A model generated the notes under the pieces. That model had not been told where the DNA came from, did no database searches, and was given only the letters and a program-made list of their open reading frames with translations. Both the position numbers and the translations under genes were made by a program. A DNA stretch of 64,000 nucleotides from a virus (lineage: Duplodnaviria; Caudoviricetes): IMG/VR virus record IMGVR_UViG_3300046318_000318; one strand, given 5' to 3'. Shown here piece after piece: positions 7,897 to 49,710 of this stretch (positions are counted from its first letter, which is position 1; each line of letters begins with the position of its first letter).

Positions 7897-7983
7897 TCAG
7901 CGACGTGTCGTCACTGCTTCCCAAATGATGAAAGGCGTTGTGATCGCCGCAAAGGCGATCACTGCAATGTCAATCATATCCAT
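7897..7983 (-). CDS. Cassette 1 first cargo: 28-aa hydrophobic peptide MDMIDIAVIAFAAITTPFIIWEAVTTRR
   Basis: ATG at the same SD spacing (GAGGAG-TACATT-ATG) as in the other cassettes; below the ORF-track cutoff. Confidence 0.65.
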   Translation of the reverse strand: MDMIDIAVIAFAAITTPFIIWEAVTTRR

Positions 7984-11721: not shown

Positions 11722-11723
11722 AC

Positions 11724-11769: not shown

Positions 11770-11970
11770 TCACGAAAACGCCAGATAGGGTTTTCGTGAA
11801 AAGACCCGGACCCCGTCCTCGCGGACGAAACTCCAGGTTTTCCTAACCATACACTTTTTGTACCGGGTTTCCCCGGTTTTAATGCTTTTGCTCATCCGCG
11901 CAGCTGCGCGGAGAGCGTACCCCGCAGCATAAAATGCTGCGGTGGTTTCACGACGGGTCATGTGTTCCAT
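11770..11970 (-). CDS. Cassette 2 cargo: small basic hypothetical protein
   Basis: 66 aa, Arg/Lys-rich, GAGGAG SD, stop abuts T2. Confidence 0.7.
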   Translation of the reverse strand: MEHMTRRETTAAFYAAGYALRAAARMSKSIKTGETRYKKCMVRKTWSFVREDGVRVFSRKPYLAFS

Positions 11971-12064
11971 AATACACTCCTCAGCTGATAGCTAGATCAA
12001 AAGCAATCTATTAAACTACAGCTATGTATCAAGTTAAGTATATGTGATTGAAATCTTTTATAAG
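11971..12064 (-). promoter_or_regulatory. Cassette 2 putative early promoter + structured leader + SD
   Basis: CTTATAAAAGATTTCAATCACATATACTTAACTTGA...GCTGTAGTTTAATAGATTGCTTTTGATCTAGCTATCAGCTGAGGAG. Confidence 0.85.
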
Positions 12065-29363: not shown

Positions 29364-29852
29364 TTATTTACTCAGGAGTTGTTTCAACTCCGTGATGTCT
29401 TTGGCAATACCGCCAGATCCATCCCAGGAATCACCTAGGAGCTGGATCATCGACGACAACCCAACCGCCCCTGTGGGAATTCCCAACAGGGTCAGTAGAT
29501 TGTTTTGGGTAGTCTTGACAAAGACCCCCTCATTACCACTCTTGTAGCGCTCATGGACACATACGTGCCCGTATTCGCTACCTTGGACAATCAAGAGCCG
29601 ATTAGTCTCCCAATCATAGGAGACGTACATGTCTCCGTCATTAATCTTCTCATACAGGACACCATCATAGTATCCCGTACCATTTGCCCACTCTTGGCGA
29701 TAAACCAGGATTTTGTTTTCTTTAACAAGTCTTTGACAGTGTCGGTAAAACACTGTCCCTGCTTCTGTCGTCGGAATGCGACCATTATTGTACAGGGTTT
29801 CATTGCCCTCACCCCAAAAGGTGAAAACGAATTTTTCGAATGTCTGTGCCAT
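29364..29852 (-). CDS. Cassette 3 cargo: hypothetical protein
   Basis: 162 aa, GC-richer, AAGGAG SD. Confidence 0.75.
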   Translation of the reverse strand: MAQTFEKFVFTFWGEGNETLYNNGRIPTTEAGTVFYRHCQRLVKENKILVYRQEWANGTGYYDGVLYEKINDGDMYVSYDWETNRLLIVQGSEYGHVCVHERYKSGNEGVFVKTTQNNLLTLLGIPTGAVGLSSMIQLLGDSWDGSGGIAKDITELKQLLSK

Positions 29853-29946
29853 GAGTATCTCCTTAACTGATAGTGTCGCAGAAAGAACGACTTAAACCAC
29901 AGCGATAGCTCAAGTTAAGTGTACGTGATTGAAATATTTTCTAAGG
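29853..29946 (-). promoter_or_regulatory. Cassette 3 putative early promoter + structured leader + SD
   Basis: CTTAGAAAATATTTCAATCACGTACACTTAACTTGA-GCTATC-GCTGTGG-TTTAA-GTCGT..GCGAC-A-CTATCAGT-TAAGGAG. Confidence 0.85.
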
Positions 29947-32180: not shown

Positions 32181-33818
32181 TTATTTTTCCAGGACCCTGT
32201 TTGGAAGATAGAACATCTTCAAGGCTTTCTCTGTCTCAGAAAGAATATGCTCAAGCTCAGGGTTCTGAATGAAGTTTCCTGTGTTGATATCTATCTTTGC
32301 ATATGGATTCAAGCGGTTAGTCGGTGACGGATTGCTTTTACCCAGAAAGAGAATACTTCCTGTACTGATCATACTGACATCCAAATGGTTGGCTTCAGAA
32401 ATCACAGTTCTACCTTTACTCTCACGAGATCCATTACCTGTCGCTTCTTGCATGGCTGCTTTAGATGTGATCTTCAGGTACTTGTGGTCACCTGAGTACG
32501 ACACTGCTTCAGCCACGATCCTTGACGATGCCAGTTTATAGATAGGTCCCGGATTGATCATTTTAGCCATGGTGGTGCGAACGTCCTGAAACAACAGACG
32601 ATTCCTCTTTTGAAGGATCTTGTTGATTTCAAACATGCATTTAATCATGCTTGAGGTAATGTCGTACAGCATGTAGTACATGACATCCAGGTTCTTTAGC
32701 CACATGTTGAGGTTACTGTTGGTATCCTCAAGCACCATCTGGTTAAAGCTCTTAACAATCACAGCCAACAGATCGTAATATGTGTCTACACAGATATCTC
32801 TATCAGCCAACTTCTCAATAGCGATAGAGTCCATGCAATCATCCAGAGATATCAAGTGATCCTTGATATCCATGATCAGTTTACTATGAGAATGATTACC
32901 CGAAAAGATAATGCTACCCAAAGTCATCATCCACTGTTCTCTGGTCTCCAGAAATGGAAGAGTCATCTGCAATGGGAAATGATCCACCACGTAAAAGAAA
33001 CCAGCACAGAACTCACGAATGTTGTCATTCCAAAGGTGTCTTGGAATAGCCAGTCGAATCTCAGTCGGTTTATAAAACTTATCCTTACTGGTCTTTGGCT
33101 GAATCTTGGTAGACTCAACAATCACCCAATCACTCTCAGGAAAAGTCTCTGCATTAATCTCAGACCCACCAGTTTTAGGTATACAGCCTGTATACCTTCT
33201 AAAGGTTTCTGAGAACCCATATTTAGCCAACAAGTAATGAATGTTGCAAGTGTTGGCTTTTGTAGTGGGTGGTAACTTTTTGGTGTTACTGTTTCTCCTA
33301 TACAGACTGGCCCAGATGACGTGTGTCGTGATACGGACACTATCCACGGTGATGGAATGGTAACACCGATAAAAACTGTTGCGATCACGAAGAACACGCA
33401 CAAACACACTGGACTGCCCAGGAGATATCACCTTGTCAGATATCACTGGAGTGACATGGTACATCGTACCGGACAAATGAAAAGTACCTGCTTCACCTAT
33501 AATAGGCAAAGACAGATACCGATCAGGTAAACGCTCGCCTTCAAACTCAAACATGAACTTTACCAGGTAAAGATCAGATTGAGAAATGTCAGCGGTGCGT
33601 TTGTTATTCTTTACCCGAGTGTATTCAGTATACTCCTCAAGAGGCGTGCACCTTTTACAACCCAGATAACGAAGTCCGGGGGGGTAACCTTTCAGATTCA
33701 TGAAGACCTTATGCAAGTAGTCCTCAGGTCTCTGCATCACTGCTTGACCAACACCGTTCATGATCAAGGGATTTACCGGTGGTGTGTTCTGCACCAGAAA
33801 ATCGTGAAATTGCCCCAT
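32181..33818 (-). CDS. Non-virion RNA polymerase beta subunit, N-terminal part (phiKZ gp123-like)
   Basis: 545 aa, GLRYLGCKRCTPLEEY and YLSLP..G.AG.F.LSG..Y motifs; synteny near MCP. Confidence 0.75.
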   Translation of the reverse strand: MGQFHDFLVQNTPPVNPLIMNGVGQAVMQRPEDYLHKVFMNLKGYPPGLRYLGCKRCTPLEEYTEYTRVKNNKRTADISQSDLYLVKFMFEFEGERLPDRYLSLPIIGEAGTFHLSGTMYHVTPVISDKVISPGQSSVFVRVLRDRNSFYRCYHSITVDSVRITTHVIWASLYRRNSNTKKLPPTTKANTCNIHYLLAKYGFSETFRRYTGCIPKTGGSEINAETFPESDWVIVESTKIQPKTSKDKFYKPTEIRLAIPRHLWNDNIREFCAGFFYVVDHFPLQMTLPFLETREQWMMTLGSIIFSGNHSHSKLIMDIKDHLISLDDCMDSIAIEKLADRDICVDTYYDLLAVIVKSFNQMVLEDTNSNLNMWLKNLDVMYYMLYDITSSMIKCMFEINKILQKRNRLLFQDVRTTMAKMINPGPIYKLASSRIVAEAVSYSGDHKYLKITSKAAMQEATGNGSRESKGRTVISEANHLDVSMISTGSILFLGKSNPSPTNRLNPYAKIDINTGNFIQNPELEHILSETEKALKMFYLPNRVLEK

Positions 33819-33836: not shown

Positions 33837-35063
33837 TTAAGAAAACTTACGCATAGCTGCCCATACACCCAGTCCAGTTACCAAGCCAGCTCCCGCCATC
33901 TTGAGATACTCACTGCTGTCCTTACGTTCAGCTGACCTACTGTCATAATAATCATCTCTGACTCTAGATTTTTGCTTAATATTATCTTCCAAAACCACAG
34001 TCTCGGTATTGAGTTTGTCTTTCAACATCTCATACTCCATTTTAGCCATCTTGGCTTTTGTCTCAAGCTCAGCGACTATCTTCTTGGTTTCAAGAAGAGT
34101 TTGTTCAAATGTGAAGCGTGTTTCGTTGAGTTCTGCTGTTTTCATTTCATTGGCTGCGCGCATAGATTCAGTTTCTTTTTTGGCCTGCTCAAGCAGAATG
34201 CTATTGCTTGCTTTTGAAGCCTCTAACTCATTTTGCATAATCAGAAGTTTCTGTTTGCTGAGTTGTTCAGCTTGGTCGTCAGACAAAGCTTGCTCAGCAG
34301 TTGGGTAAAGACCCAGTTTATCCTGAGCCTCATCCAAGCCCAGTATGCTAGGTATGGTGGTCATGCTACCATCTTTGGACTTCAGTTCTGTGTAATAGAC
34401 CCCGTTAGACCTGGATGGATCTTTAATAGGTTCAACCTCAATAAGAGACTTACCCATTTTTATGAACCTTTTACCATACCGGTTATCGTTGTCTACCACC
34501 TGTATGGTAGCGCCGCTGTAGATGTTTTCAAGACCCATGTCTTTAAACTGTCTAACGGTCCTACCTTCAGCACTGTAGGGATGGTGTATGTTAGCATGAT
34601 AATCTTTACTCATGAGTAACAGATCCACACATGGCGCGTAACAAACTTTCAGCTTCGAGAGATTAGAAATAGGATAACGACTATCCACCACAATCTCACA
34701 ACTGAAGATAGACCTGTTAGTGTCAAATGCTTCAGTCAGAACCAGACGGATGGTTTCCAGTTCCTCATTACCAGAACCATTCAACTTCTGATACTCAGTC
34801 AGCATGTTGATTACCTCAACGATAACCGCATTGTTCTGGAACTTGTAGATTGATCTGACGATAAACTCTTTGGAATGCACGACGCCATTAACAGCACGTC
34901 GAACAAACACAGGGAGATTATTCCTATTAACAACCACAACGTCTTCAGTTGTGTCGTTGATGAAGAACATTGTCTTGCGGAAAGGGCTGTGAAGCTCTTT
35001 CGTATTCTGTTCGTTTACCACCTTGGTTTCAGAACCGATATTTTGTACTTGGCTTGCCAGCAT
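33837..35063 (-). CDS. Conserved hypothetical protein (phiKZ gp122-like) with coiled coil and C-terminal hydrophobic tail
   Basis: 408 aa, first gene of the operon with the nvRNAP subunit. Confidence 0.65.
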   Translation of the reverse strand: MLASQVQNIGSETKVVNEQNTKELHSPFRKTMFFINDTTEDVVVVNRNNLPVFVRRAVNGVVHSKEFIVRSIYKFQNNAVIVEVINMLTEYQKLNGSGNEELETIRLVLTEAFDTNRSIFSCEIVVDSRYPISNLSKLKVCYAPCVDLLLMSKDYHANIHHPYSAEGRTVRQFKDMGLENIYSGATIQVVDNDNRYGKRFIKMGKSLIEVEPIKDPSRSNGVYYTELKSKDGSMTTIPSILGLDEAQDKLGLYPTAEQALSDDQAEQLSKQKLLIMQNELEASKASNSILLEQAKKETESMRAANEMKTAELNETRFTFEQTLLETKKIVAELETKAKMAKMEYEMLKDKLNTETVVLEDNIKQKSRVRDDYYDSRSAERKDSSEYLKMAGAGLVTGLGVWAAMRKFS

Positions 35064-35135
35064 AAGTTCCTCTTTTTAAAAGTTGATTAAGCTCTTTGAG
35101 ACAGAGCGGTCAATTAAAGTATGTGTGACTAACGA
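35064..35135 (-). promoter_or_regulatory. Variant early-promoter-like motif upstream of the nvRNAP operon
   Basis: GTCACACATACTT resembles cassette core (A/G)TCACATATACTT, followed by hairpin GCTCT-GTCTCAA-AGAGC and SD AAGAGG. Confidence 0.5.
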
Positions 35136-35151
35136 TAGATACAAACAGAAC

Positions 35152-35196
35152 AAAAAAAAAATAACACCCCCGGCCTGTAAGGGCTAGGGGTGTTAA
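35152..35196 (-). terminator. Cassette terminator T4
   Basis: ataacacccccggcctgtaagggctaggggtgtta; one substitution from T2/T6. Confidence 0.85.
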
Positions 35197-35197
35197 T

Positions 35198-35223
35198 TTA
35201 CGCCTCGATCACGCTCCAGCCAT
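35198..35223 (-). pseudogene. Collapsed cargo of cassette 4 (reads MAGA-stop)
   Basis: AAGGAGATAATC-ATG GCT GGA GCG TGA TCGAGGCG TAA, then terminator immediately. Confidence 0.65.
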
Positions 35224-35316
35224 GATTATCTCCTTAACTGATAGTGTCGTAGAAAGAACGACTTAAACTACAGCGATAGCTCAAATAGAATATATGTGAT
35301 TGAAATTATTTACAAG
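35224..35316 (-). promoter_or_regulatory. Cassette 4 putative early promoter + structured leader + SD
   Basis: CTTGTAAATAATTTCAATCACATATATTC...GCTGTAG-TTTAA-GTCGT-TCTTTCT-ACGAC-A-CTATCAGT-TAAGGAG; near-identical leader to cassette 3. Confidence 0.85.
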
Positions 35317-35371
35317 AACTTATTTAGAAAAAAGATACACACAGCCTCATGGCTGTGTGTATTTTAATCTA

Positions 35372-36478
35372 TCAGAAGTCAAACTCCATAGCCCCAGCTG
35401 GAACATCATGAGTATTCATACCCAGTAGATACCCACCTAAACGTTCTTCCTGAGCAGCACCTTGAATACCATCAATAGTAATCCAATCAGCTGTAAAGGC
35501 CAAAGGTAGTTTCTTAGGAATATCAAACTCAGGTTGGATGCCAAAGAAACTGTAAACTTCACCTGCGTAATAACAGACTTGTTGGCAAAGTTTCTCAGCT
35601 GTCAGACCAGATACTTCTCTTCCATTACGGAACAGAGTCTTATTAACCCAATCCAGTTCTGTCTGTATCACAGCTTTGATCATCTCAGCTATCTGTGTGC
35701 GACACTGATTAAAAGCCATCAGACCTTTAGAAGTACGCATCATGGCATCAAGGATGATCATATCACCTTTAGAGTGAATATGATATTCATCCTGACAGAT
35801 TTTCTGCACAGCTTTGGCAAATGGAATATATCTACCTGCTTCACCGTACGAGAAAGTCACTGTAAAGCTTGCCATGAACTGGATACGTTCCAGACACAAA
35901 AGAGCAGCTACATACATAAAGACCACGTTGTAGACTTCCTGACTGTTTCTATCCAGTTGGTTAAGAGCCAGTTTATGAGAGACCTCATAAGCTTTTTCAA
36001 GAACTGCGTTGATAACAGACATTCTTTCAAACGAAGGCTTTAGGGCCAGGATATCTCTCATGACCTTATCAGGATCATCAAAAGCATTCTTGACCATCTC
36101 GCTGTATGTCAAAGCATGCACTTGCTCATTGTCACCCACACGCTGCCAATATGACCACAGAGTCGTATCGCTGGTAAAGTTAGCTCCAATACCGGAGATA
36201 CCCTTACTCACCACACTGTCAGCTTCCCATTGCCAAGCAATAGTATCCAACATGATCTCGTAATCTGTGCGAGGGCAAGTCTTAAACTCTAACAAGCAAG
36301 ATTGGAAATCGAATTCCATCTCATCCCAGTCCTGAGCTTTGAGTTTCTTATACAGATCTCTCAGCTCAGGTAACTGTACATTGATAGAGTCTGTCAATCC
36401 AGCATCTTCACCAAGTACAAGCTCAGTGCCGATATAGTCTTTCTTTTCATTGTTGAAAATCTTACTAGAATAACTCAT
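35372..36478 (-). CDS. nrdB: Class Ia ribonucleotide reductase beta subunit
   Basis: WEADS, DNEQVHALTY (E-x2-H-x3-Y), LERIQF, QDEYHIH; likely start MSYSS at 36478. Confidence 0.9.
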   Translation of the reverse strand: MSYSSKIFNNEKKDYIGTELVLGEDAGLTDSINVQLPELRDLYKKLKAQDWDEMEFDFQSCLLEFKTCPRTDYEIMLDTIAWQWEADSVVSKGISGIGANFTSDTTLWSYWQRVGDNEQVHALTYSEMVKNAFDDPDKVMRDILALKPSFERMSVINAVLEKAYEVSHKLALNQLDRNSQEVYNVVFMYVAALLCLERIQFMASFTVTFSYGEAGRYIPFAKAVQKICQDEYHIHSKGDMIILDAMMRTSKGLMAFNQCRTQIAEMIKAVIQTELDWVNKTLFRNGREVSGLTAEKLCQQVCYYAGEVYSFFGIQPEFDIPKKLPLAFTADWITIDGIQGAAQEERLGGYLLGMNTHDVPAGAMEFDF

Positions 36479-36489
36479 ACTCACCTTTT

Positions 36490-38934
36490 TTAAAGTTTGC
36501 AACTATCGCCGCAGTTCTCTTCCACAGCCATCTCTTGAACTTCCCCGGAACCATCTTTGCTGTTGGTGAGTGTGTTACTGTAATACTTAGACTTAACCCC
36601 ATACTTAATCATGGTAAAGTATTCAGTCAGAATCTGTTTATCACTGAGCATCACATTCTTAGATCTGTCTTTATAGGTATCCACGCTGATAGACTGATCA
36701 GTGAACTTTTGCATAACAGCATAAGCTTTGATCATATCCACACCAGGGATATCATAACCGATCTCGTACTTATCACCCAACAGATCGCTGTCAGTAGCTA
36801 CCCAATCCACTGTGTTGTTCTCATCAGACTTCTTCAAAGACAAAGCGCGGATAGGATAAGGACCGTTAGGCACACCTGAAGCTTTAGATGAGGATTCAGT
36901 AGGCATCAGGTTTATCAGACAGCTAAAACGAATACCGCCGTTTTTCACTATATCTGAACGAAGAGCTTCCCAATCATACTGAAGATCCACGGTAATCAAC
37001 TCATCTACAGCTTTCTTATAGCTATCAATAGGCAACCATCCATTAGCCCATTTTGTTTTATGGATCCAAGGAGCATTACCTTTTTCAATACCTAATTCAA
37101 GAGCTGCTCTAATGACAAAGTAAGCATGGCGTTCAGAGATACGATGAATCTCATTACGACCTTCAAGTGTACTATACTTAAGACCTTTACGAGCAAGTAG
37201 TGTAGCCAGACCAATGTGACCGACACCAGCATTCAAACGACTCTTAGCAGTGAATCCAATATGCGGCAAAGCATAAGTAGACAGATGAATACATCTATCA
37301 ATCATTCTCAGAGCTAGTTTACAGGTTTTATGGTATTGTTCGTCTGTATGAATGTTAGGAAGAACAACAGCACCAAGTGAACACAATGCTACCTCTCCTG
37401 GAATTTCTTTACTAACTATATCACCCACCACATAGTTCTTATAGGTGTTGCTATTAGGCACTGAGAAGAACTCACCTTTTGTCAAACTACCTGCATAAGT
37501 CCTACCTCTACCAGTCACAGACACTTCAAGATTGTAAGGAAGCTTAACTATGTTACCGTTGGTCTGTGAGAATGAAATATGACCGTAATCACCAGTTCTG
37601 TACAGGTCTTGCACCGAGTTATAACCAGCTGTCGATTCGCAAACTTCCAAGCAGAGATTTGAGCTATGGATGGGTTCTTGAAAAGGAGTATGGCGATTAG
37701 CTTCTTCAATGTTGAAGTGATACAGAGTAGACACCTCTTCAAACTGTGTCAGCATAGTCAAACACAGATCACGAGCACTCACGTACTCTTTAACAAAGTT
37801 ATCATCCTCTTCATACTTCTTATACAAAGCCTCAAACTTCTGAATATCACCGCTGAACATAGCTGCGTGAAGATCAGGAGCTGTATAACAATTAAAACAA
37901 AACATTTGTTCATCGTCTCTTGCTTTTCTAGCAAAGAAACTATTAGTCATCACCGCAAAGTGTACATCACGATTGCGTTTGGCTTCAGGAGTCCTTGGGT
38001 TCTGAAGCATGATGAGATCTTTGGCTTCTTTTTCAAAGATGTCAAAGTAAAACGTAGCAGCCCCAGCACGACCTGCTTGCACACCTTTAATAGTGTTCTT
38101 AGCTGTAGTAGCGAAGTAAGGACGCTTGCCACCATGAGGGAACCTACCACCGCGTACAGGATCACCGATAGATCTCAGATTATGATGAGTACCAATGCCA
38201 GCAGAAGCAGCTGTCATCTTAGAAGCGATCATGTCACCACAATCGATAGACTCGTTGTTATCGGACACCTCGACGAGGCAACAACTGGCGTAGCCATTTA
38301 GAGGACTGCCTAAGTTCACATAGTTGGGTGTAGGCGCATTAAGACGATTCAGGCTAAACTCATCGTAGTATTCTTGCACCAACTTAAGCTTCTCTTGACT
38401 GTCTTCGATATCATCAGACAAGCGCATAGCCATACGCATGAACGTATATTGAGGAGTCTCATACCTGATACCAGATACCAGATTAGAAATGCTGTACTTG
38501 TGATGGATTTGTTTGATCTGGCTGTGTGCGTAGTTAAAGTCACGCTTATGGTCTATGATACTTTCAATCGCTTCAAACTCAGCATCTGTATAACCCATGT
38601 CAATCACCAATCCGGTCTTAATAAGATCTTCATTGATCTTCTTAACCGAAGGCATCTCATCACCATAGAGAGCTTTATGTAACCAAGCAGCATACAATCG
38701 ACCAGCCATCACGTTATGCGGCCAATCTTTCTTATACAAACAAGCGTTGATCAACTCTTTCTGAAGACTCTGGCTGTTTTCAATCTCTTTACAGTTACTC
38801 AGAGCATCAAGCACCACACCTGACCAATCCACGCGATCGCCTAAACTGTCAGTAGCCCATATAGCCCATTTGTTGAGTTTAGAGGGTGTATATTCTTCTT
38901 TAGTTCCATCTCGCTTGATGATATACTTGATCAT
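36490..38934 (-). CDS. nrdA: Class Ia ribonucleotide reductase alpha subunit
   Basis: N-terminal ATP cone (IIKRDG), ASCCL, SSNLCLE, MPTESSS, C-terminal CGDSC. Confidence 0.92.
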   Translation of the reverse strand: MIKYIIKRDGTKEEYTPSKLNKWAIWATDSLGDRVDWSGVVLDALSNCKEIENSQSLQKELINACLYKKDWPHNVMAGRLYAAWLHKALYGDEMPSVKKINEDLIKTGLVIDMGYTDAEFEAIESIIDHKRDFNYAHSQIKQIHHKYSISNLVSGIRYETPQYTFMRMAMRLSDDIEDSQEKLKLVQEYYDEFSLNRLNAPTPNYVNLGSPLNGYASCCLVEVSDNNESIDCGDMIASKMTAASAGIGTHHNLRSIGDPVRGGRFPHGGKRPYFATTAKNTIKGVQAGRAGAATFYFDIFEKEAKDLIMLQNPRTPEAKRNRDVHFAVMTNSFFARKARDDEQMFCFNCYTAPDLHAAMFSGDIQKFEALYKKYEEDDNFVKEYVSARDLCLTMLTQFEEVSTLYHFNIEEANRHTPFQEPIHSSNLCLEVCESTAGYNSVQDLYRTGDYGHISFSQTNGNIVKLPYNLEVSVTGRGRTYAGSLTKGEFFSVPNSNTYKNYVVGDIVSKEIPGEVALCSLGAVVLPNIHTDEQYHKTCKLALRMIDRCIHLSTYALPHIGFTAKSRLNAGVGHIGLATLLARKGLKYSTLEGRNEIHRISERHAYFVIRAALELGIEKGNAPWIHKTKWANGWLPIDSYKKAVDELITVDLQYDWEALRSDIVKNGGIRFSCLINLMPTESSSKASGVPNGPYPIRALSLKKSDENNTVDWVATDSDLLGDKYEIGYDIPGVDMIKAYAVMQKFTDQSISVDTYKDRSKNVMLSDKQILTEYFTMIKYGVKSKYYSNTLTNSKDGSGEVQEMAVEENCGDSCKL

Positions 38935-47729: not shown

Positions 47730-48861
47730 CATTAATTAACTTCGGTGTGGTAAAACCAATCTTTGTATTTATCCTTTTTAACCCTGTGTGTCACTAAACC
47801 TTGCGATATTTTGAAATATCTAGAAGCATCAGCACATGAGTTAAAAAGAATTCCACCTGCAAATACCTTACGAGTGTTTGTTGGTGGGATACCTATTCTG
47901 TTTTCCCTAAGTTTTCTTTTTGTTTCTTCAGTATGTTTTCTATTGAAGAAAGAATTCTTAGAACCGGTTCTTAAACGTTGACGTGCTCTGATTTTTTCAA
48001 TTTGTTCTTCAGAAAGTTTACAACCTTTGTTGTAGCTATGACCTTTATGCATTAAAGATATAAGCTTTCTGGTTTCAACTGAATGTTGTCTTCCAAACAT
48101 TCCATTAGCTGAACCATTTTTACCCCAAAGGTTTTTTCTTTCTAAAACAGACATTGACGCTATATTTTTAGCTTGTGTTTTGTTTCTTCTGTCTAATATG
48201 TCATCACGTTTTGGATGATTAGATAAAGAATTGCCAAATTTAGAATTTAAACTTATATTAGCCAGTAGGTTTTTATTCAGACCTGTGTATGACTTTATTA
48301 TAAGCTTTTCCTCTAATTGAAAAGCTTCTTCCCTAGAACTACACGGAATAGAGGAAACTTTATAATCAGTTCCTTCACACCATGCTTCTTGTAAACGCAG
48401 ATTATGGTGATTGTTTCTTTTCAACGACCTAAAATGAGTTCGAAGTCTTTTCTTTAAATTTGACGTACTACCTATATAAAACACACCTGTTTTTGTTAAT
48501 GTGAGTATATAAACACAAAAATCATTACTGTTCATATAGATTCCTCGTTAGGATTACCATATAATGAACACAGCACTGCTTTACATCTCTGTAAAGATAG
48601 ATCATATCACCACCTTCAGCCTTACCTGTTAAGGGTTCCCCGTTTCGAAGCGATTCACATCGGTTCTACGTCTTTCGACTGATCGTTGAACTTTCTCCAG
48701 TTTAAAGGAGCTTAGCTGCTGATTGTCTCTACCTACTAATTTTCAAACACGTTACGTATGTGTTTTCACACTCCGCTTTGGTTTAGTAGTCTAACAAGGG
48801 TTTCCAGCAATTAGAGGAATTTTCAAATAGGTATTTCTACCTATACAGCGCTCAGTTATTA
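47730..48861 (-). ncRNA. Group I intron in thyA
   Basis: P1 CAGCGU/GCGCUG with U.G at the splice site; P10 ACUGA/UCAGU; P AAUUGCUGGAAA, Q AAUCAGCAG, R UCAACGAUCA, S GAUAUGAUCU (P7 GAUCA/UGAUC); P9 CUUUACA-GAGA-UGUAAAG; terminal G at 47730. Confidence 0.9.
47732..48535 (-). CDS. Intron-encoded GIY-YIG homing endonuclease
   Basis: CVY-x10-YIG, KKRLRTH, FQLEE, NUMOD3-like HSVETRKLIS/HTEETKRKL, C-terminal HTH. Confidence 0.9.
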   Translation of the reverse strand: MNSNDFCVYILTLTKTGVFYIGSTSNLKKRLRTHFRSLKRNNHHNLRLQEAWCEGTDYKVSSIPCSSREEAFQLEEKLIIKSYTGLNKNLLANISLNSKFGNSLSNHPKRDDILDRRNKTQAKNIASMSVLERKNLWGKNGSANGMFGRQHSVETRKLISLMHKGHSYNKGCKLSEEQIEKIRARQRLRTGSKNSFFNRKHTEETKRKLRENRIGIPPTNTRKVFAGGILFNSCADASRYFKISQGLVTHRVKKDKYKDWFYHTEVN

Positions 48862-49710
48862 ACGCTGGAACATAAGTAGGTTCAAACGCTTCTTACCACC
48901 TTCATTGAGAGCAGGTTGTACAAAGCATTGGAACATAACATGGCATGGTGCCAAAGCACCCATACCCAACAATACATTCAGATCAGGAGAAATCTTATTG
49001 TCAGGAATGAATTGTGGTAACCATGAGCTTACCACAAGACGTGAAGAATAAGGATTGTTTTTCAGTTCAGCCAGAAGAATACCTAATTGATCTACCTTAG
49101 AGACATAAGTCTTCTGAATGAAATCAGTCTCTGTGACGGGATCTGTTCCATCATCTTCTGCTTCTTTATAAGCAAGATATTCTTTATAAGCTTCTTTAAA
49201 AGCTTCTACTTTATCAGAAGGAATATCTTCGATAGGTGGTTTGTTTCTGAGAAGTTGGTGAATGTTACTCATCTCATCAGCAGGGGCATGGCGCCAGTTA
49301 AAGCCGTACAAAGGACCGATAGATCCGATACGCTCACTGATCTGTTCACGAAGTTTAGCCATGAGCATTTCATTACCGGCCATACTCTGACGATCTTCTT
49401 CTGATTCAAACTTAGACAAGAAATATTCCATGAACTTATCCACTGTTTTTTCAGTGACAGCCCAGTTATCCCAGATATGCACATTTGCTTCATTCAGCAA
49501 AGTGTTATCAATCTCACCAGCGATAAACCAAAGCAATTCTTCTTTCATACCTCGAAAGAAGATCTTACGAGTAGTGACCAAAGGAAAACCATCACTCATG
49601 TTGAATCGGACTTGTCTACCGAAGATAGATCGACGACCTACGCCGGTACGATCGGGATGATCATGTCCATTGTCACGGATATCCTTGAGGAGTTCTATAT
49701 AAGTCTTCAT
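48862..49710 (-). CDS. thyA: Thymidylate synthase exon 1
   Basis: DRTGVG, EELLWFIAG, HIWDNW, GPLYG..WR, SRLVVSSW, ALAPCH, ends MFQR. Confidence 0.92.

Follow-up and report, generated by a model that had tools for sequence, protein, structure and literature searches.

An apparently emptied early-gene cassette between nrdB and an RNA polymerase operon in a freshwater phiKZ-type jumbo phage

Morons of lambdoid and other phages are autonomous units of promoter, gene and terminator that are located between core genes. The element considered here is similar in that it is a self-contained transcription unit between two core genes, and it is present in some relatives and absent from others. However, morons lack standardised control sequences that serve as recombination substrates, and in the unit described here the gene itself appears to be gone.

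Another group of described elements is the PeSLs (promoter-early stem-loop), which are mobile regulatory cassettes of T4-type phages (Arbiol, Comeau & Krisch 2010, PMC2839356; Comeau et al. 2014, PMC4122927). In the portions of these papers drawn on here, a repeated terminator stem-loop (of the GGGG...CCCC type), an early promoter and a ribosome site surround small accessory ORFs, the units are transcriptionally insulated, and where very close relatives differ by an indel or a replacement, the endpoints fall within the elements and the crossovers lie after the promoter and before the ATG. The family described below resembles PeSL in these respects. The nrdB terminator is followed by a promoter, a leader and a Shine-Dalgarno (SD) sequence, and the unit then ends in its own terminator. 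There are six such copies around small ORFs in the window (the whole stretch of 64,000 nucleotides that was analysed) and nine strong copies in the related genome G001, and differences between close relatives end inside the elements in the pair L043/L044, at shared junctions and in cassette 2. Some features set the two families apart. As the same portions of the PeSL papers present them, PeSL promoters are strong, sigma-70-like and used by host RNAP, and the elements lie in long hyperplastic regions, whereas the cassettes of the window are not sigma-70-like, are most likely served by a virion RNAP and sit singly between core genes. Also unlike the PeSLs portrayed there, the cassettes carry a 38-nt covarying 5′ leader hairpin whose inner stem is variable between cassettes. 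Those portions of PMC2839356 and PMC4122927 mention no unit that was emptied while all its parts stayed intact. PeSLs also give rise to excised mini-circles that carry one element and an ORF; the contigs across the empty unit, in which rare forms would not appear, contain no such joints. Judged from its sequence, the family works like PeSL but is not PeSL in the strict sense.

The source of the window is an uncultured freshwater phiKZ-type jumbo phage. Its major head protein, encoded in the window, belongs to phrog_3231 (phiKZ-type) and its RNAP beta-like subunit has 250 phiKZ-like matches; these two genes place it among the phiKZ-like phages. There was no match to the region in a megablast search of 50,697 phage records, and the nearest published genomes are those of Ralstonia, Burkholderia and Xanthomonas jumbo phages, at only 25-34% protein identity. 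A pattern scan of IMG/VR with the 408-aa protein encoded downstream of the unit gave no relative, and a search of IMG/VR with nrdB found G001. Relatives are taken here to be those whose nrdB proteins fall within one 90% cluster, and their nrdB genes are 82-97% identical to that of the window at the nucleotide level. The nrdA gene, located 5′ of nrdB, encodes 814 aa in the window (36490-38934), 1148-1210 aa with an intein (Intein_splicing and LAGLIDADG matches) in G001 (L008:2567-6013), L049 and L062, and at least 950 aa in L059; nrdA inteins are thus present in some close strains and absent in others.

RNAP-encoding jumbo phages carry an extended, highly conserved AT-rich motif before early operons, which is read by an injected virion RNAP (PMC7598289). 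In two experimentally studied phages with phiKZ-type early promoters, transcription starts 6 nt downstream of the motif (PMC7598289, PMC5312081). Transcripts of this class are made early and are independent of new protein synthesis. The motif of the window resembles the promoters of phiKZ-related virion RNAPs (vRNAPs) in being extended, conserved, AT-rich and located before small early-type genes (PMC7598289, PMC5312081). In sequence it departs from the phiKZ and AR9 consensus, which is common when phages are compared, and its class and start site are assigned by analogy (PMC5312081). The 19-nt core, TCACATATATTCTATTTGA (35299-35281), has the extended, conserved and AT-rich character of early promoters of phiKZ-type vRNAPs. 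It has six matches in the window versus 0.06 expected by chance, and all are on the coding strand, 5′ of small ORFs or of the RNAP-subunit operon. A weaker copy of the motif precedes the operon with the RNAP beta-like gene. The motif is conserved in G001, in L027/L029 and in G002, a contig from which nrdB and the 408-aa gene are absent. A simple scan for sigma-70-type promoters at 34900-35500 gave no match, and this reading of the promoter was dropped. By analogy with the two reviews (PMC7598289, PMC5312081), from which its class and start site are drawn, the cassette promoter is most likely read by virion RNAP. A similar promoter core (TTTCAGTCACATAT...) follows a terminator 3′ of nrdB in L027/L029 (5770-5810), where the nrdB protein is only ~51% identical, which indicates that the promoter motif is older than the strain group.

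All parts of the unit are on the minus strand. Its slot is bounded upstream by the core gene nrdB (35372..36478), which encodes the ribonucleotide reductase small subunit (PF00268) and is called at 368 aa in contigs identical to the window. The intrinsic terminator of nrdB (35328..35362), identified by a terminator scan, has a 12-bp stem and a T-run at 35333-35328, and forms the left boundary of the inserted unit. Downstream, the slot is bounded by a 408-aa gene (33837..35063) in the position of phiKZ gp122, and the next gene (32181-33818) encodes the RNAP beta-like protein of 545 aa. By comparison with the cassette-free relatives L049, L054, L058, L062 and L063, the whole insert is 176 nt long (35152..35327) and consists of promoter, leader, mini-ORF and terminator. 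A second promoter-like motif, a weaker copy with three mismatches to the consensus, is located beyond it (35110..35128) and serves the 408-aa gene.

The sequence-only reading had described this unit as one in which all regulatory parts are intact around a collapsed gene, and each of these parts is indeed found in its place. The conserved promoter block (35281..35316), defined by the repeat family and by motif enrichment, is a probable virion-RNAP early promoter and includes the 19-nt core given above. Its intactness needs some qualification, as there are four mismatches to the commonest 19-mer, but the block is identical or nearly so to a second variant (...ATATTCTATTTGA). This variant drives occupied cassettes in the relatives G001 and L043, and thus the promoter of the empty unit is not decayed. 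The leader (35280-35224) occupies the interval between the promoter block and the ATG. Measured from the SD back to the promoter end, it differs at three of about 61 positions from the leader of cassette 3 (29850-29934), in line with the near-identity claimed earlier. The SD, AAGGAG (35230..35235), is located 6 nt 5′ of the ATG, and its GG core is invariant in the leader alignment. The cassette terminator (35152..35194), recognized both by the repeat family and by the terminator scan, has a stem of ~10 bp (AACACCCC...GGGGTGTT) followed by T10, so that a GC-rich stem-loop and a T-run are both present at 35194-35152. As had been noted, it is one base off the terminators T2 and T6; the difference from these hairpins, at 11723 and 50837, is a loop base. 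No regulatory part of the empty unit shows decay, as would be expected if the loss were recent or if the unit were maintained by selection.

Between these parts there is almost nothing. The start codon opens a four-codon ORF, ATG GCT GGA GCG TGA (MAGA-stop; 35209..35223), and a filler of only 23 nt (35198..35220), presumed to be the remnant of a lost cargo, separates the ATG from the terminator. The filler ends in an out-of-frame TAA (35200-35198) located 3 nt from the terminator hairpin, and the TGA of the mini-ORF sits 14 nt from the terminator stem. The 26 nt counted earlier from the ATG at 35223 to the TAA ending at 35198 hold, inclusive of the A of the ATG and the end of the TAA, as does the MAGA-stop frame. 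The earlier figure of ~90 nt for the RNA does not: if transcription starts ~6 nt past the motif, as it does at the phiKZ-type early promoters that have been studied, and stops within the T-run, the predicted length is ~120 nt.

The alignment of 17 leaders from the window and its relatives reveals two stacked helices directly 5′ of the SD, with 93% of cells paired. In the empty unit the hairpin spans 35237..35274, with an outer helix P1 (35274-35268 with 35244-35237) and an inner helix P2 (35262-35258 with 35250-35246) closed by a loop at 35257-35251. Among these 17 leaders, 9 of 12 pairs are changed on both sides and all five inner-helix pairs are compensatory. None of 500 shuffles reached the observed covariation score, and slid controls gave 18-49% pairing versus the 93% observed. 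Both the MFE and the centroid folds of the empty unit, started near 35278, reproduce the leader hairpin with the SD open and add the terminator hairpin. On this comparative evidence the leader is a real RNA structure that is under structural selection in the cassette family. Elsewhere in the window, a group I intron (48579-48871, minus strand; 67.4 bits) is the sole match that exceeds its Rfam gathering score.

The six cassettes of the window are all on the minus strand, at ~8.1, 12.0, 29.9, 35.3, 44.8 and 51.4 kb. When promoter plus leader is searched for with a covariance model, the window yields these six full copies and no others, and the empty unit has the top score among them (104.6 bits, E about 1e-20), an E value that excludes chance. 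The nine strong copies of G001 are distributed over 120 kb. Cargos in the window and G001 range from 28 to 219 aa and are mostly without a known family.

Since the flanks of the empty unit are repeats that break short-read contigs, and Logan unitigs stop within the promoter, the unit could in principle be an artefact in which the assembly collapsed across repeated leader and terminator sequences. However, the JGI contigs L038, L039 and L041, which come from other samples, hold the same complete structure except for T-run length; a fourth, L042, stops within the promoter. Logan contigs of three further runs, all freshwater and independent, cross the 408-aa gene, terminator, filler, ATG and leader without base differences: X6 record 8 spans 34600-35268 with one T fewer in the T-run, X9 record 24 spans 34955-35292 and X7 record 19 spans 35023-35226. 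Contig breaks are confined to the repeated promoter, as expected for short-read unitigs, and no joints or alternative forms on the same flanks appear in the contigs, which drop rare variants. The earlier call for read support to exclude a misassembly is thus answered by identical structures in other contigs, and the chance that the unit is an artefact is practically negligible. Contigs that are otherwise identical have 8 to 10 T in the terminator T-run (35152-35161), a variation that may be a homopolymer length polymorphism or sequencing error.

There are eight states of the slot between nrdB and the 408-aa gene among close relatives. Five nrdB variants (L049-52, L054-57, L058, L062 and L063-64) have no cassette. 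In these the gap from nrdB to the 408-aa gene is ~133 nt, and the T-run of the nrdB terminator is joined straight to GTTCTGTTTGTA and the promoter-like motif of the 408-aa gene. The empty unit is found in the window's strain only, whose members are at least 99.6% identical to the window. The remaining relatives carry a 112-aa cargo of PF08960 (the DUF1874/AcrIII-1 family) in G001/L008, a 103-aa cargo in L026, an 84-aa cargo in L053, a 91-aa cargo in L044, L045 and L048, two tandem cassettes with cargos of 187 + 91 aa in L043, L046, L047 and L067, or a 140-aa repeat-protein cargo followed by a further cassette in L059 and L061. The relatives L059 (3602-4351) and L061, with tandem cassettes at the slot, are more distant, with an nrdB that is 82% identical. 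Their 140-aa cargo is composed of short repeats with a weak DUF6745 match, and their cassettes each end in a copy of the nrdB terminator, not in the usual cassette terminator.

PF08960 is DUF1874, which we take to be the STIV B116-like, AcrIII-1 ring-nuclease anti-CRISPR family. The slot cargo of G001 and the cargo of window cassette 6 both match it above the curated cut-off and are 55% identical to each other; such a gene is absent from the empty unit. Several slot states come from the same samples (Ga0456316 for L044 and L065, Ga0456302 for L047 and L061, Ga0456276 for L045 and L064), which makes co-infection between lineages plausible.

This comparison, with five single cargos, a tandem pair or no cassette at the slot, supports the cargo turnover proposed from the sequence of the unit, and in no relative outside the window's strain is the same empty structure conserved. 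It also bears on a proposal made from the outset, namely that the unit is kept for a function of its own and yields an abundant early RNA of ~120 nt that acts as a decoy of a leader-binding factor or as an sRNA. The control parts are all intact and the copy is the most consensus-like of the family, the predicted RNA folds well (z = -3.3), and the leader hairpin is under structural selection. However, a recent origin or homogenisation with sister cassettes would account for an intact unit just as well, and the form is restricted to one strain, with five nrdB-variant lineages lacking any cassette at the slot and other relatives holding ordinary cargos there. Furthermore, no leader-binding factor is known, and Rfam 15 has no family for the leader or the whole unit (for 35100-35400 the best E is 0.1-0.2, well below gathering scores). 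We therefore view retention for such a function as very unlikely. In particular, the predicted RNA is unlikely to be functional because many relatives lack the unit entirely.

Translation of the mini-ORF might alternatively tune terminator read-through into the operon of the 408-aa and RNAP beta-like genes. The unit is directly upstream of this operon and its stop codon is only 14 nt from the terminator stem, as an attenuator would have it. But a promoter-like motif of its own precedes the 408-aa gene in every slot state, so that the empty unit is not needed for this gene, which is expected to be expressed without it in cassette-free relatives. The same terminator ends ordinary cargos elsewhere, and the folds include no alternative anti-terminator pairing. 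An attenuator is accordingly a highly improbable explanation.

The cassette is also the site of a sharp mosaic boundary between nrdB and the 408-aa gene. When the window is compared with G001, nrdB is ~96% identical at the DNA level and 99% at the protein level, and the 408-aa gene (33837-35063 in the window, L008:7756-8982) is ~57% identical at the DNA level and 50% at the protein level. A third allele of the 408-aa gene (L043/L044) is ~59% identical to both.

Some of the events by which cargo moves can be read directly from close pairs. L043 and L044 have an identical nrdB protein and 99.7% identical nrdB DNA, and L044 corresponds to L043 minus the first cargo, consisting of the first leader up to AGCTAAGGAGATA and then the second cassette onward. 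Since the switch point falls within this 13-nt stretch, which is identical in both L043 leaders, there is direct evidence of leader-leader recombination. In cassette 2 (window 11770-12053 versus L075/L016, G001:44724), the cargo is 66 aa in the window and 208 aa in G001, and the flanks are 94-96% identical. In cassette 1, the second ORFs of these two genomes cannot be aligned. Cargo families change slots as well, with the first slot cargo of L043 being 36% identical to the 208-aa cargo at 44.7 kb of G001.

The empty unit has a history in common with occupied units at the same slot. Its left junction (...ATCTTTTTT|CTAAATA...) is common to the window, G001, L026 and L053. A terminator loop variant, CCCTTACAGG, is private to this slot in the window, G001 and L053 (L026 ends too early). 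The window, G001 and L053 nevertheless differ throughout from the inner leader helix to the stop codon. Because the ends are shared and the middles differ, the exchanged module spans the region from the inside of the leader to the terminator. Such a pattern fits one old insertion whose middle module was subsequently replaced or lost. The promoter-plus-leader block of the empty unit is 95% identical to that of an occupied cassette at 84.2 kb of G001, and its leader alone is 95% identical to that of window cassette 3; the inner helix differs in the orthologue of the unit in G001.

Such identities raise another possibility, which is that the unit never held a gene and that its control parts were simply joined by recombination between cassettes. 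The two 95% matches do show control-part transfer, and no ancestral cargo has been found. However, a gene that collapsed would leave behind just such an ATG after a strong SD and a stop codon 3 nt from the terminator, and occupied units at this slot have the left junction and the terminator variant in common with the empty one. Moreover, crossovers in shared parts, the sole kind documented here, cannot create 23 nt of unrelated filler. Assembly from control parts is for these reasons an unlikely origin, and loss of a cargo is the better reading.

A cargo starting ATGGCTGGAGCG or ending GAGGCGTAA, as would be expected of the gene before its collapse, is present in none of the fetched loci. Exact and fuzzy searches of the window and the fetched loci with the head (CATGGCTGGAGC), the tail (TCGAGGCGTAA) and the middle of the filler matched only the window's strain, and exact-protein look-ups of nrdB and 408-aa variants returned no window-like strain with a full cargo. 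The only hints, an ATGGC start and a TCGA-N4-TAAAT tail, are shared with the DUF1874 cargo, and this spacing is too weak for the end of the filler to be counted as homologous to the end of that cargo. Apart from the L043/L044 pair, no inner branch of the star-like nrdB nucleotide tree is supported, and the window's nearest relatives on both flanks are cassette-free (L054, 96.6% in nrdB; L058, 95.4% in the 408-aa gene), so that phylogeny does not prove in which direction the slot has changed.

We consider it likely that the empty unit is a cassette of a self-contained early-gene family whose cargo was lost while the controls stayed intact. Cargo loss is the best reading because the left junction and the private terminator variant are shared with occupied units, and because the unit, like those with real cargos, has an ATG behind a strong SD and a stop placed 3 nt ahead of the terminator. 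The sequence-only reading had gone further and called the unit the scar of an internal cargo deletion. The loss and turnover of cargo on which that view depends are supported by the slot states, the shared junction and the terminator variant, but the cargo itself was not found, and since the fetched loci include no match to it, the internal deletion is deduced from the anatomy of the unit. The direction of change (loss), the deletion mechanism and the transcription of the empty unit are what we infer.

A likely sequence of events can be proposed. Each cassette combines a conserved AT-rich promoter with a leader hairpin at the 5′ end, a strong site for ribosome binding, a single small accessory gene and a shared intrinsic terminator, and the conserved leader and terminator would provide portable homology. 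Recombination between cassettes, either within one genome or between co-infecting relatives, could then swap, add or remove cargo, and the slot after nrdB is a hot spot of this kind. Probably, the cargo of the empty unit went by illegitimate deletion inside the gene, since crossovers in shared parts cannot leave 23 nt of unrelated filler, and this would account for the four-codon ORF and the filler. Most likely the empty unit still fires early and yields the terminated RNA as a by-product. It would also still be a ready acceptor for new cargo by double crossover. An integron-like reading was dropped on anatomy alone, as what the cassettes share is a promoter, a leader and a terminator, and the one resolved crossover took place by simple homology.

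The locus offers a snapshot of how small early genes, including those of anti-CRISPR type, may be exchanged at standardised cassettes in nucleus-forming jumbo phages, with eight slot states among co-occurring freshwater strains and one crossover resolved to 13 bases. In this way the PeSL principle reaches beyond T4-type phages, to a phage in which a virion RNA polymerase of its own is probably used, and the locus also points to a conserved 5′ leader hairpin as a component of the portable unit. The empty cassette itself is most likely an ordinary by-product of cassette shuffling. That it is instead retained as a leader-titrating RNA of ~120 nt that tunes other cassettes, or as a selected docking site for anti-defence genes, has a slim chance of being correct. 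The unit has practical value as a natural 'no-cargo' control, and it would be a ready insertion site if a cultured relative were engineered.

Two further units of the family have short ORFs. In cassette 1 (window 7897-7983, L018), the first ORF is a hydrophobic mini-ORF of 28-30 codons (MDMIDIAVIAFAAITTP...), and a second ORF is located between it and the terminator. The mini-ORF is conserved between the window and G001, which suggests that it probably encodes a real small membrane peptide. G001 also has a near-empty unit (L023:1495-1700 = G001:111815-112000) in which the same promoter is followed by an 18-codon ORF and then the terminator, with a leader that is different and weaker-scoring (47 bits). 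It could represent another collapsed cassette, or else a genuine gene for a micro-peptide.
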